IMG/VR virus record: IMGVR_UViG_3300021961_000063
Span: 11,207 to 75,206 of that record
Source of the DNA: a virus
Reading direction: 5' to 3' (one strand)
DNA length: 64,000 nt
Under the pieces are notes generated by a model that saw only the letters and a program-made list of their open reading frames with translations, made no database searches and was not told where the DNA came from. The translations under genes and the position numbers were made by a program. Positions 24,176-49,389 of the stretch are shown piece by piece. The first letter of the stretch is position 1. Each line of letters begins with the position of its first letter.

Positions 24176-24186
24176 TATTTATAATA

Positions 24187-24432
24187 ATGAAACAAAAATT
24201 AACTTATTTTTATAGTCCTGATTGTTCTAAATGTAGTGAAATTAAACCTTTAGTAAAGGAACTAGAATCTGTTTTTGATATTACTTATATTAATTCCTAC
24301 GAAAATGAAATATTAGTAGAGTCAAACAACATTAACTGGGTCCCAGCTTTCGTTTTAGAAGATCAAACAGGTAAATATAAATTTGAGGGCAAAAAAGAAA
24401 TTACTCAGTTTTTGAAAAAGGTTATTTTATGA
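24187..24432 (+). CDS. Thioredoxin-like protein
   Basis: CSKC motif, WVPAF. Confidence 0.7.
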   Translation: MKQKLTYFYSPDCSKCSEIKPLVKELESVFDITYINSYENEILVESNNINWVPAFVLEDQTGKYKFEGKKEITQFLKKVIL

Positions 24433-24917: not shown

Positions 24918-24958
24918 TTTTTAGGGTAAAGGTGTTATATTTATAACATATCTACTTT

Positions 24959-25387
24959 ATGGTAAATACAACACAAGTTAATATACCCATTGATACTTTT
25001 GTAGTAACTGCCATAACACAAGCAAATTGGGATAGAGCAGAAGTAAAATGGGACAAATACTACTCAGATTTTTATTATGCCCGCTATTTAGAAAAAGAGT
25101 TCAACACAAAAATTCCAGGCCCTCCTTATAAAGTACTTTGGAACCACGCTATTATTTTATCTATTGCTTTTCCTTCAGATTATGACTATCAAGATCAACA
25201 AAAAGAACGACAAAAAAGTAAGAAAAAGGTTAAAGTAATATTTATGGCCGAAGACTTAACTAAGGTTATAGATAAAGAAAAAAACAATATGATTAAAGCT
25301 GAATTTAAAGATAAAGTTGAAAATATATTAACTGAAAAAATGGGTCAAAAAGTAATATTAGAAGATGTTCACATTATATACCGATAA
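24959..25387 (+). CDS. Hypothetical late protein
   Basis: Follows ATATTTATA motif. Confidence 0.55.
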   Translation: MVNTTQVNIPIDTFVVTAITQANWDRAEVKWDKYYSDFYYARYLEKEFNTKIPGPPYKVLWNHAIILSIAFPSDYDYQDQQKERQKSKKKVKVIFMAEDLTKVIDKEKNNMIKAEFKDKVENILTEKMGQKVILEDVHIIYR

Positions 25388-25937
25388 AAATAATACCTTT
25401 CAATGTAAAATAACTTTAGAGGGGGCATCTGAATCTACAGCCTTGGCTCGTTTAATCATTGAAGGTGAACATCATAATTTAATGTTTGATGGTAAAATCA
25501 AAAATGGTTTATGTGAAGTTAATATTGGCCAATTTAAAAACTTTGATAATTTTAAAAGTAAAGGTAAAATTAAGTTAGAAGTTATAGCAGATGATGTTTG
25601 TTTTACTCCTTGGAAATCTGAATATAATATAAAACAAAATAAAAAAGTTGTTGCTGAAGTAAATGAAAAAACTTCTTCAAAACAACGTGTAAAATCAACA
25701 AAAGATTCATACATTAGATATACTCCTAAAACAGAAGTTGAGAATCATGGAGAAAAAATACTTGAAATGTTAGTTAAAGAAAGAGTTGATATTAAACAAT
25801 ATAAATCTTTAGATGTTATGTTAAATAAAAATATTAAATCCAAACTTATATTTAAAGCATATTTCCACAAAAACCAACTTTCAGAACAAGTATTAAATTC
25901 AACTTTAGGATATCTTGTAGATAAATTTTTAAACTAA
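25365..25937 (+). CDS. Hypothetical late protein
   Basis: LYTDK..F.C.I.LEG...KLEVIADD..FTPW. Confidence 0.6.
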   Translation: MFTLYTDKNNTFQCKITLEGASESTALARLIIEGEHHNLMFDGKIKNGLCEVNIGQFKNFDNFKSKGKIKLEVIADDVCFTPWKSEYNIKQNKKVVAEVNEKTSSKQRVKSTKDSYIRYTPKTEVENHGEKILEMLVKERVDIKQYKSLDVMLNKNIKSKLIFKAYFHKNQLSEQVLNSTLGYLVDKFLN

Positions 25938-32900: not shown

Positions 32901-33293
32901 ATGAACACTAAGACTAAAAGCCCGGTATTTGAAAATACCAAGAAAAATTACTTAATTGACATTGACGGAACAATTACCGATGATGTACCTAATGAAGAAC
33001 CTGAAAGAATGGTTACGTGTGAACCCTTTGAAGGTAGTATCGACTTAATAAATAAATGGTATGATGAAGGGCATATAATCACCTTTTTTACCTCTAGAAC
33101 AGAAGCACATAGAAAAATAACTGAAGAATGGTTATATAAATATGGTTACAAATATCATAACCTATTATTAAACAAACCAAGAGGGGGTAATTATCATTGG
33201 ATTGATAACCATGTTGTTAGAGCTACAAGATATAATGGCAAATGGTCTCCCTTAACAACAATAAGTGCCAACATTCAAGTATTTGAAGAATGA
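32901..33293 (+). CDS. HAD-superfamily phosphatase
   Basis: DIDGT, FTSR, KPRGG..WIDN. Confidence 0.8.
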   Translation: MNTKTKSPVFENTKKNYLIDIDGTITDDVPNEEPERMVTCEPFEGSIDLINKWYDEGHIITFFTSRTEAHRKITEEWLYKYGYKYHNLLLNKPRGGNYHWIDNHVVRATRYNGKWSPLTTISANIQVFEE

Positions 33294-33586
33294 GTTTTAC
33301 ACGTTACATAGTTGAACAAGACCATGAAAAAACCATTTGGATGGATTGGAATTGGAATAAACACAGAGAAGGTGATTTACCAGCGATCGAATATAATGAT
33401 GGTACTAAAGTTTGGTATAAAAATGGTTTAAAACATAGAGATGGTGGACTACCCGCTGTAGTATTTACTGATGGTCATCAAGAATGGTGGGTGAATGGTA
33501 AATTACATAGAGAAGACGGACCTGCAATTGTAAGAGCTGAAGGTCACGTTTTTTATTTTAAAAATGGAAAAGAAGAAACTAAATAA
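33290..33586 (+). CDS. Beta-hairpin repeat protein
   Basis: Three HR(E/D)xx(x)PA...G...(W/F)..NG repeats. Confidence 0.7.
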   Translation: MSFTRYIVEQDHEKTIWMDWNWNKHREGDLPAIEYNDGTKVWYKNGLKHRDGGLPAVVFTDGHQEWWVNGKLHREDGPAIVRAEGHVFYFKNGKEETK

Positions 33587-33622
33587 CTATTAAAAATAAA
33601 AACATATAATATGTATAACAAA

Positions 33623-33639
33623 GTGAAACCTTAGGGAAC
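33623..33639 (+). repeat. Left arm of inverted repeat enclosing hsp20
   Basis: GTGAAACCTTAGGGAAC; reverse complement of 34108-34125 with one gap. Confidence 0.85.
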
Positions 33640-33667
33640 ACTTAAATCATCTTAGGAGATAAAAATT

Positions 33668-34102
33668 ATGACAAATTTAAGCATTTTTGAGAGACAACTC
33701 TCACCATTTGACATCCTATTTAAGGATCTTTTCAAATCAGAACTAAACTTTCAACCAGCCATTGAGGCTAAATTTCCCCACCCAGTAGACATTTACGAAA
33801 ACAAAGACGGACTCCATTTTGAAGTGGCATGTACTGGTCTTACTAAAGAAGATGTTGACCTAAATATCGAGGGTGATGTATTAAAAATCAGTTATGATAA
33901 AAATGACGACAATAGTTGTTGCGATGTAAATGATTGTAACTATATTAAACGAGGAATCGCTCGTCGTTCATTTAATCTAGGTTATAAAATTGCTAACAAG
34001 TTTAATTTAACTAAAGCTGAGGCTGAAATGAAAAACGGCTTGTTAAAAATTTCAATTCCATTCGCTGAAGAAGCAAAACCAAAAACATTAACAATTAAGT
34101 AA
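33668..34102 (+). CDS. Small heat-shock protein (Hsp20/IbpA family)
   Basis: PVDIYE, EVA..G, RGIARRSF, A..KNGLL.I.IP. Confidence 0.93.
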   Translation: MTNLSIFERQLSPFDILFKDLFKSELNFQPAIEAKFPHPVDIYENKDGLHFEVACTGLTKEDVDLNIEGDVLKISYDKNDDNSCCDVNDCNYIKRGIARRSFNLGYKIANKFNLTKAEAEMKNGLLKISIPFAEEAKPKTLTIK

Positions 34103-34107
34103 AACCC

Positions 34108-34125
34108 GTTCTCCTAAGGTTTCAC
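34108..34125 (-). repeat. Right arm of inverted repeat enclosing hsp20
   Basis: GTTCTCCTAAGGTTTCAC immediately after the stop codon. Confidence 0.85.
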
Positions 34126-34130
34126 AGGTT

Positions 34131-34331
34131 ATGAAATTACATCTAATTAAAACTAAGGATGATACTTTGTATGAAGTAATACATCAGGAAGTAGAAACAA
34201 AACAAATTGATTCTGAAAAAATGAGAATCAAATATCACTGTACTGATGTTTTTAGAAACAATGGTCAATATTGGTTTGTTAGAAAAATAGAAGAAGCACA
34301 AATTATTGAAGAAAATTTGGAAAAACAATAA
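34131..34331 (+). CDS. Hypothetical protein
   Basis: 66 aa, GGTTATG start. Confidence 0.6.
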   Translation: MKLHLIKTKDDTLYEVIHQEVETKQIDSEKMRIKYHCTDVFRNNGQYWFVRKIEEAQIIEENLEKQ

Positions 34332-34351
34332 AAAGTTATTATATTCACGTT

Positions 34352-34645
34352 ATGACTAAAGAAAAAGAATACACACGTACTATTATTGATCCTGCAATGG
34401 AACCCTATTTCATCTCAATGGATGATAGTTGTATAACTGTTAACATTAAAGTTACCCCTGATTCTCGTTATAGTGATTCAGGTAAAGATTATGTTAAAGT
34501 AATAGGACATTATAGCAATGTAAGTAGTGCCTTAAAATCAATTATTAAAGACAAAACGAACAGTCAATCCTATGATTCTTTAAAAGAGTATATGGATGAG
34601 TACAGTAATCTTACTGAACGTTTAAATCAAGTATTAAATTTTTAA
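34352..34645 (+). CDS. Hypothetical protein
   Basis: 97 aa after TTTGG-N19-TATATT promoter. Confidence 0.65.
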   Translation: MTKEKEYTRTIIDPAMEPYFISMDDSCITVNIKVTPDSRYSDSGKDYVKVIGHYSNVSSALKSIIKDKTNSQSYDSLKEYMDEYSNLTERLNQVLNF

Positions 34646-37082: not shown

Positions 37083-37101
37083 TCCCCGTATATTTATAAT
37101 C

Positions 37102-37602
37102 ATGAAAACATGTAATGATTGTAAAATAAACGAAGCTAAGTATAACAATGGAAAATGTAAAGATTGTAATACAGCTTATATGACTGAGTATAGAAAAACT
37201 CAAAACTACAAAGAATACCAGACTAAAGATTATACAAAAACAAAAGAAAAACGTTTAGCTTATAAAAAAGATTATTACCAATCTCATAAAGCAGAACGAG
37301 CTAAATATATGAGAGATTATAGAAAAGCAAATCCTAAATATAGAGCTCAAGATGCTATAATAACTTATATAAATAAAAAAATTAAAGAAAGAGCTGATTT
37401 TATTGATTATTTAGGTTGTGGTTGGAATGAATTTTTTGTATATTTAGAAAAACAATTTACAGAAAATATGAATTGGGATAACTATGGAACATATTGGGAA
37501 ATTGATCATATCCATCCGCTAAGTAAAGGAGGTAGTTTTCATTATACTAATACCCAACCATTAACAATTACCGAAAACAGAAGAAAATATAATAAGTTAT
37601 GA
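37102..37602 (+). CDS. Free-standing HNH (homing) endonuclease
   Basis: CxxC..CxxC, basic linker, YLGC, M.WDNYG..WEIDHIHPL, HYTN.QPL...EN..K. Confidence 0.8.
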   Translation: MKTCNDCKINEAKYNNGKCKDCNTAYMTEYRKTQNYKEYQTKDYTKTKEKRLAYKKDYYQSHKAERAKYMRDYRKANPKYRAQDAIITYINKKIKERADFIDYLGCGWNEFFVYLEKQFTENMNWDNYGTYWEIDHIHPLSKGGSFHYTNTQPLTITENRRKYNKL

Positions 37603-49215: not shown

Positions 49216-49239
49216 TAATGAAGCCATGTATGTATAGGC

Positions 49240-49389
49240 ATGGCAGCAAAAAAATCATCATCAATAAGTGCATCTTCTTCCTATAAAGAGAAGCCTAAGA
49301 AAAACAACAAGGGAGTTCACGCTAAAACAAAAACTAGCAAATCTAAAAACTCCACTAATTACAAAAAGTTATCAGTAGGCCAAGGTTAA
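49240..49389 (+). CDS. Small Lys/Ser-rich basic protein (49 aa, not in ORF track)
   Basis: MAAKK...GVHAKTK.SK.K.S.NYKK.SVGQG. Confidence 0.6.
   Translation: MAAKKSSSISASSSYKEKPKKNNKGVHAKTKTSKSKNSTNYKKLSVGQG

Follow-up and report, generated by a model that had tools for sequence, protein, structure and literature searches.

Why is a small heat-shock gene in a phage genome enclosed by the two halves of a long-range inverted repeat, and do these halves act in the DNA or in the message? We addressed this question at the hsp20 locus of a 64,000-nucleotide stretch of viral DNA (the window), which is part of a 75-kb IMG/VR virus record. A first-pass annotation of the window had described the repeat, proposed that its 3' half could pair alternatively with a Shine-Dalgarno (SD)-like site ahead of the gene, and named the locus a candidate RNA switch; all coordinates and sequences that it gave for the locus were found to be correct. 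The genome has 33% G+C, and its genes are tightly packed and all lie on one strand. It is largely without SD sequences, since AGGAG was found at -20 to -4 in just 2 of the 96 window ORFs, and the same count bears out the annotation's remark that an SD-like site is unusual here. The PolB of this phage shows at most 34% identity to that of any cultured phage (the best being Microcystis phage Mel-JY01 and T4-like cyanophages), and blastn of the hsp20 locus against cultured phages returned no nucleotide match. The phages that carry the helix described below are a large clade of uncultured T4-like phages. The parts of the locus are as follows.

33609-33618, + strand: promoter-like motif ATATGTATAA (class ATAT[G/T]TATA), a putative promoter adjoining the 5' arm on its upstream side
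33614-33619, + strand: outer 6-bp helix extension, 5' side, pairing with 34128-34133
33623-33639, + strand: 5' arm (GTGAAACCTTAGGGAAC) of the long-range helix, no more than about 2 nt from the predicted transcript start
33649-33659, + strand: leader element AUCUUAGGAGA with the SD-like AGGAG (33654-33658)
33668-34102, + strand: hsp20 ORF, 144 aa, alpha-crystallin family (Pfam PF00011, E = 1.8e-10; PHROG 432)
34108-34125, + strand: 3' arm of the long-range helix, GTTCTCCTAAGGTTTCAC, with a bulged T34112
34128-34133, + strand: outer extension, 3' side, including the orf66 AUG (34131-34133)
34131-34331, + strand: orf66, 66 aa, between the 3' arm and the conserved orf97-GroES-GroEL block

The outer part of the repeat, GTGAAACCTTAGG (33623-33635), matches 34113-34125 exactly in reverse complement, and no further copy exists in the 64-kb window. 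One bulged T (34112) carries the pairing on to 33639/34108, giving the one-bulge inverted repeat of the first description, 17 bp with its arms 468 nt apart. Five nucleotides lie between the hsp20 stop codon and the 3' arm, and five more between this arm and the next ATG. This ATG belongs to orf66, which was found only in the window's own (closest) clade and had no family match. AGGAG of the leader element stands 9 nt ahead of the hsp20 ATG at 33668. Among 157 exact inverted repeats of at least 11 nt within 4 kb, the hsp20 pair alone had both arms in intergenic DNA with more than 40% G+C. Similarly, the helix score of the hsp20 flanks (37) ranked first among 191 gene or gene-pair flanks (median 17, 95th percentile 23). 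These two measures, the exact-repeat scan and the per-gene helix score, were used in place of RNAduplex over all intergenic-region pairs, which was dominated by long regions. Neither measure found a comparable enclosing helix around any other window gene, so that enclosure by a helix is not general in this genome. A weaker complementarity, rich in A/T (AAAGGTGTTATATTTA / TAAAAATAATACCTTT, window 24928-24943 and 25385-25400; score 26.5, fifth in the window), which may be due to chance, flanks an ORF of 142 aa without a family match (24959-25387). As to gene order, the usual arrangement in related loci is PolB-clamp-hsp20-orf97-GroES-GroEL; in the window, a HAD phosphatase gene and a gene for a 98-aa repeat protein (32901-33586) are inserted before hsp20.

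Conservation of the helix was examined in 78 related viral loci retrieved by their Hsp20 protein (47-98% amino-acid identity), which reduce to 55 distinct flank pairs and 29 arm clades. At nearly every locus, a segment directly after a TAT[G/T]TATA-like motif complements a segment just past the stop codon. Examples of such 5' / 3' arm pairs are GACCTACGGGCACCCC / GGGGTGCCCGT.TAGGT, GCAACTTAAGGGCGC / GCGCCCTTAAGTTGC, CACTGCGGGTTGGA / TCCAGCCCGCAGTG and GATACTTAGCAGGTCGGTC / GACCGACCTGCT.TATC. Complementary flanks were thus present at the homologous loci: 54 of the 55 distinct flank pairs form a duplex of -25 to -43 kcal/mol, compared with shuffle means of -12 to -21 kcal/mol (RNAduplex). The single exception, represented by loci L051 and L052, has its 3' arm deleted. 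The 5' arm (CTTCACTGCGGGTTG) and an intact hsp20 remain in both, which makes them a natural loss-of-helix variant. Because hsp20 is intact there while the 3' arm is lost, the helix must be dispensable at least in L051/L052. About 20 loci with other neighbour genes still keep the helix. The geometry is also retained: in most clades the 3' arm begins 5-9 nt past the stop codon, the 5' arm ends 28-60 nt ahead of the ATG, and in every clade the helix contains neither an SD-like site nor an AUG.

We asked whether the two arms of each locus match each other rather than any arm of this family. In an alignment-free test, each 5' arm was paired with all 29 3' flanks. The arm's own flank was the best partner for 19 arms and among the top five for all of them; the mean energy was -29.2 kcal/mol for own pairs and -15.1 kcal/mol for non-own pairs, and none of 20,000 permutations was as good (p <= 5e-5). 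Covariation was tested separately for a specified 9-bp core, the whole mRNAs having been aligned with MAFFT without the use of structure; the inner ends of the RNAduplex helices were unusable as anchors for aligning the arms, as extra inner pairs shift them. The core was paired in 82.9% of cases, compared with 73.0 ± 1.3% in shuffles, of which none of 500 reached as high a value. Changes on both sides were found in all nine core pairs, with 27 such cells against 8.7 ± 3.0 expected, and sliding the partner by a single column lowered core pairing to 50-61%. Several rows of the MAFFT alignment are visibly misaligned, and the estimate of core pairing is for this reason conservative. RNAalifold on the same whole-mRNA alignment did not recover the long-range helix, because indels and bulges offset the arms. 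Interior wobble-type mismatches comprised 23 G.U and 8 A.C (p = 0.011; the scoring treats G.T and A.C alike). This excess of G.U over A.C argues that the helix belongs to the sense RNA and not to duplex DNA or the antisense strand. Judged by these sequence comparisons, in which the annotated pairing shows compensatory change across the 29 arm clades, we conclude that the helix enclosing hsp20 is a real, selected structure in the sense RNA.

The position of the helix relative to the start of the message was examined through the motif that precedes it. ATAT[G/T]TATA occurs in 13 copies on the + strand of the window and in 3 on the - strand, and 10 of the 13 + strand copies lie in intergenic DNA, which makes up 6.2% of the window. 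Being intergenic and strand-specific, the motif behaves as a promoter-like signal. An 8-mer of the form TAT[ATG]TAT[ATC] stands ahead of the helix in 26 of the 29 arm clades; in these, the first paired nucleotide falls at +1 to +7 after the 8-mer, with a median of +4; for the first G/C pair the median is +6.5. Across clades, 16-34 pairs of helix follow downstream of the motif. At three window genes (24176-24189, 37091-37104 and 49229-49242), the ATG lies 4 nt past the end of TAT[G/T]TATA, with 3 intervening nucleotides. Because the ATG begins so soon after the motif end, transcripts of these genes should start at or before about +4, and their messages may be leaderless or have leaders of a few nucleotides. 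For hsp20 we infer a transcript start at about 33621-33623, 0-2 nt ahead of the first pair of the helix. Since the outer extension (33614-33619) sits inside the promoter motif, it should be present only in RNA that reads through from upstream. Partition-function calculations gave this 6-bp extension a pairing probability of 0.82-0.87 in read-through RNA, and the orf66 AUG was predicted to be unpaired at 0.86-0.90 in promoter-started RNA compared with 0.24-0.27 in read-through RNA.

A second promoter-like class, TTATATT(C/G)A(C)G, often with TTTGG about 20 nt upstream and ATAATAAAGGTTATG after it, stands before many genes of the window. The hsp20 3' arm is immediately followed by it in most related loci. 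Its pattern is like that of the Bacteroidota promoter type (-33 TTTG / -7 TAnnTTTG). This fit (TTTG...TAnnTTTG-like) hints at a Bacteroidota host. Start codons of the window have a preferred context of their own: the commonest is A(A/G)GTTATG (e.g. 34126-34133, 34346-34354), and the three most frequent hexamers before the ATG are AAAGTT, AAGGTT and TAAGTT. The ATAT[G/T]TATAAC motif ends in ATAAC, whose reverse complement is GTTAT, and promoter and start regions are for this reason partly complementary genome-wide.

Window 19254, 28170, 34340, 49815, 52531 and 63086 (and 7700, 20290, 44760, 48625 and 60590): second promoter-like class

The predicted fold of the message was in accord with the annotated pairing of its two ends. 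For the 510-nt mRNA (33621-34130), both the minimum-free-energy and the centroid folds contain the helix (z = -3.4). In partition-function calculations the probability of the helix was at least 0.98 from 10 to 55°C, with the SD unpaired at 0.3-0.5; the helix is thus predicted to stay closed over this whole range and to leave the ribosome site free. Taken with the compensatory change in 29 clades and the wobble asymmetry of sense RNA, its presence in the whole-mRNA fold upholds the end-to-end pairing that the first-pass annotation had put forward. The window's leader could also be drawn as a hairpin AUCU-UAGG-AGAU, which was not stable (-1.2 kcal/mol, z = 0). Most related loci (L012, L015-L047, L053, L058, L061-L064) have another leader type at about -45 to -20 before the hsp20 ATG, a hairpin GCUG-AUCUUCGGA-CAGC followed by ACAAAUUUAAAAUGAUAUG, without an SD. 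Its stem co-varies in L058 (GCCG...CGGC) and its loop varies; this loop is homologous to the window's AUCUUAGGAGA element.

What the helix does is a separate matter, and the reading with which the locus came to us was an RNA switch resembling icaR or hok, in which the 3' arm would toggle between the 5' arm (on) and the SD-like site at 33649-33659 (off). The complementarity behind it is as described, TCTCCTAAG (34110-34118) being exactly complementary to CTTAGGAGA (33651-33659). Extended to 33649-33659 with 34110-34120, it amounts to 11 bp including one G.U, and at -15.8 kcal/mol it beats 200 of 200 shuffles. The 3' arm fits the SD because of the bulged T34112, and this T is invariant in the clade while nearby spacers vary. 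When the 5' arm was deleted from the model, the SD:3'-arm pairing formed at 0.97-0.99 and the SD became fully paired. In full-length RNA, however, its probability was 0.000 at every temperature tried, and folding from 10 to 55°C, which had been suggested as a way to reveal the switch, returned the end-to-end helix at 0.98 or above throughout and the alternative at 0. The nascent RNA does not offer it a better chance: until the 3' arm has been made, the more accessible of its two partners is predicted to be the 5' arm (0.58-0.60 unpaired, compared with 0.32-0.44 for the SD block). The phylogenetic record points the same way. The SD:3'-arm pairing was significant in the window's own clade only (L001-L003 among the distinct flank pairs scored; L004-L007, L023 and L045 carry the same arm sequences), within which arms and SD are invariant. 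In L049 it was marginal (-10.6 kcal/mol, equalled or bettered by 7% of shuffles), and it was absent from about 10 other clades with an AGGAG leader, that is, all but the window's and L049. Moreover, the complementarity is largely explained by CTTAGG, a sequence that the 5' arm has in common with the conserved leader element. We therefore regard a translation switch by SD sequestering as improbable, and that part of the first-pass annotation was not supported. The SD:3'-arm pairing appears to be a secondary, clade-specific feature that could come into play only once the 5' arm is gone; it might, at the very most, stop decay intermediates truncated at their 5' end from being translated.

Three other readings were weighed against the same data. 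The helix with a U-rich tract might be a split intrinsic terminator or insulator that ends hsp20 transcription or blocks read-through into orf97-GroES-GroEL; the gene would then lie in the terminator loop, with the terminating ribosome over the inner 3' arm and orf97-GroES-GroEL differently promoted. T indeed makes up 49% of the 12 nt immediately downstream of the 3' arm's G+C-rich block, compared with 30% in controls, and a run of at least four T occurs in 31% of clades compared with 5.7% of controls. The 5' arms often open with an A-rich tract, as in bidirectional terminators, and many loci have a second promoter-like motif (TATATTCACG) past the 3' arm. Against this, the window's own clade lacks a U tract, the T-richness may simply mirror the A-rich transcript start, and a loop of about 470 nt makes a hairpin kinetically a poor intrinsic terminator. 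Also against it, one 252-kb phage record (L076:3440-3476) carries a separate, canonical terminator hairpin, GAGTCGGCC...GGCCGACTC with a T run, directly after the 3' arm, which suggests that the L076 transcript ends just past the helix. With its loop of about 470 nt, no U tract and no terminator call, the window's helix was not classed as an intrinsic terminator, and for the family as a whole we hold this reading to be unlikely. Small heat-shock genes are classic targets of RNA thermometers (ROSE, fourU, cyanobacterial hsp17), and the helix could in principle melt on heat shock and alter translation or stability. The SD and AUG lie outside it in all clades, however, and at 55°C it was still predicted to be closed at 0.98. 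No Rfam thermometer family matched, and a search of the locus against Rfam at a permissive threshold gave chance-level matches only; the ROSE/fourU assignment was rejected, and a thermometer of any kind is in our judgement very improbable. Even less can be said for a DNA-level element (cassette ends, recombinase or invertase sites, an operator pair or a cruciform), to which the first-pass annotation had allowed a role. It would suit the occurrence of hsp20 with its arms in several gene neighbourhoods, like a portable cassette. The arm sequences, however, are not conserved; they differ between clades and co-vary. The preponderance of G.U over A.C (23 to 8) would be meaningless for duplex DNA, no further copy of the repeat exists in the window, and hsp20 is oriented as clamp, GroES and GroEL in all of the approximately 55 loci with recognisable window-type neighbours, with no inversion among them. 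An invertible or mobile cassette was accordingly rejected, and any DNA-level role seems to us exceedingly improbable.

On balance, and with modest confidence, we favour the reading that the helix is a clamp joining the ends of the hsp20 message, for stability or for RNase III processing. It would link the first nucleotides of a transcript started at the promoter-like ATAT[G/T]TATA to sequence 5 nt past the stop codon, hold the whole ORF in a loop of about 470 nt, and form a conserved part of the hsp20 expression cassette. Definition or protection of the ends is its likeliest job, because the ribosome site is left free and the helix is too stable for a thermometer. Closing the message in this way would bury its 5' terminus against 5'-end-dependent decay. 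End protection is favoured by the start of the helix at the predicted 5' terminus, by the precedent of hbs, where a 14-bp 5'/3'-UTR pairing modulates nuclease access (PMC5737220), and by the hairpins of pelagiphage Mosig, which stand at the same two positions as the arms (see below). The double-stranded site could also allow a host RNase III-type enzyme to free hsp20 from longer transcripts, and the paired ends so produced would withstand exonucleases. In Bacillus subtilis, long-range RNase III substrates have been mapped with duplexes of 10-36 bp between segments up to 505 nt apart (PMC11780869); the 16-34 pairs and the loop of about 470 nt match these in length and span, which favours RNase III. 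A search for RNase III (PF14622 and PF00636) in the record of the window phage found neither family, nor was PF14622 found in four related records (75-93% complete), and such an enzyme would thus come from the host. In the window no terminator was called after the 3' arm and orf66 starts 5 nt on, so that protection of the 3' end would need an endonucleolytic cut. Two further observations count against the clamp, namely the L051/L052 lineage without a 3' arm and the U-rich tail in about a third of clades, which would fit a terminator instead.

A further possibility, to which we give little credence, starts from the closeness of the stop codon to the 3' arm, 5-9 nt in most clades. A closed loop would place the stop codon near the leader, and released ribosomal subunits might be passed back to the start of the same message. 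If true, translation would sustain itself at a very high level in a host with hardly any use of SD pairing, and the terminating ribosome would briefly open the inner helix, coupling protection to translation.

Pairing of mRNA ends in bacteria and phages is represented by a handful of single-gene cases (hbs, icaR, hok), none of them known to have broad covariation. Our full-text literature search found no paper linking phage hsp20 with such end pairing, and Rfam holds no family for the hsp20-enclosing helix. Here, compensatory changes have preserved a helix among phages with different neighbouring genes and with Hsp20 proteins as little as 47% identical. The helix singles out the hsp20 of uncultured T4-like phages as an expression cassette complete in itself. 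The dozens of sequence-diverse, structurally equivalent helices form a natural series, with which the part of 5'-3' pairing in mRNA decay, RNase III processing, termination and translation can be tested.

Comparison with systems that resemble the locus in one respect or another delimits what is new. The known thermometers of small heat-shock genes (ROSE, fourU, cyanobacterial hsp17) are local hairpins that mask the SD or AUG and melt at 30-42°C. The hsp20 helix has in common with them an RNA structure at a small heat-shock gene; it differs in being long-range, in leaving the SD free and in its predicted stability to 55°C. RNase III substrates include the stems of rRNA precursors and sites in T7 early mRNA. 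The likeness to RNase III stems lies in paired segments, up to about 500 nt from each other, on either side of a functional RNA, which is released with paired ends on cleavage; the difference is that the hsp20 helix is a putative substrate, known from sequence, and that no phage RNase III gene was found in the records searched. Among cultured phages, tblastn with Hsp20 found pelagiphage Mosig (MT647606.1) only, at 30% identity. In this phage, a local 5' hairpin starts 3 nt past a TATAAATA box, and the hsp20 gene is followed by a strong local 3' hairpin. The box is a late-type promoter box, and the two stems, one within 3 nt of it and one right past the stop codon, occupy the same positions as the arms; Mosig, however, has two separate local hairpins in place of one helix made from both ends.

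Closer to hsp20 is the class of 5'-3' UTR long-range interactions to which hbs, icaR and hok belong, and both the complementary segments and the compensatory changes expected of this class were found. In the Staphylococcus aureus icaR mRNA, a pyrimidine-rich 3'-UTR motif pairs with the message's own SD (Ruiz de los Mozos et al. 2013, PMC3868564), blocking initiation and creating an RNase III substrate. The pairing of 34110-34120 with 33649-33659 in the window has the icaR form. In icaR it is the main structure, whereas in hsp20 it is outcompeted by the 5'-arm helix and limited to one clade, and anti-SD control of the icaR type was rejected on these grounds (P = 0.000 in full-length RNA). The phage helix further differs from icaR in its length, its terminal position and its broad covariation in phages. 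In the hok mRNA, as summarised in PMC9841398, pairing of the 5' and 3' ends in the tac/fbi stem closes the full-length message, and removal of an end refolds it and changes SD accessibility; hok is not translated while closed and becomes active through trimming of its 3' end. The polarity in hsp20 would be the opposite, the closed form being predicted to leave the SD open and loss of the 5' arm to silence it, and the hsp20 helix has no counterpart to the antisense RNA partner. The nearest relative is the hbs mRNA of B. subtilis, in which a 5'/3'-UTR pairing of about 14 bp encloses the ORF of a small, highly expressed mRNA (PMC5737220). That pairing modulates endonuclease access by RNase Y, and thereby mRNA stability, and not the ribosome site (Braun, Durand and Condon 2017, PMC5737220). 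Both systems have long-range pairing of the 5' and 3' UTRs around one ORF. They differ in that hbs is a single cellular gene with RNase Y as its enzyme, with experimental proof and without a broad covariation record, whereas the phage hsp20 helix is longer (16-34 bp), stands at the predicted 5' terminus of phage mRNAs and is documented by comparative evidence only. We conclude that the hsp20 helix is a new, conserved variant of the rare 5'-3' pairings of mRNA ends.
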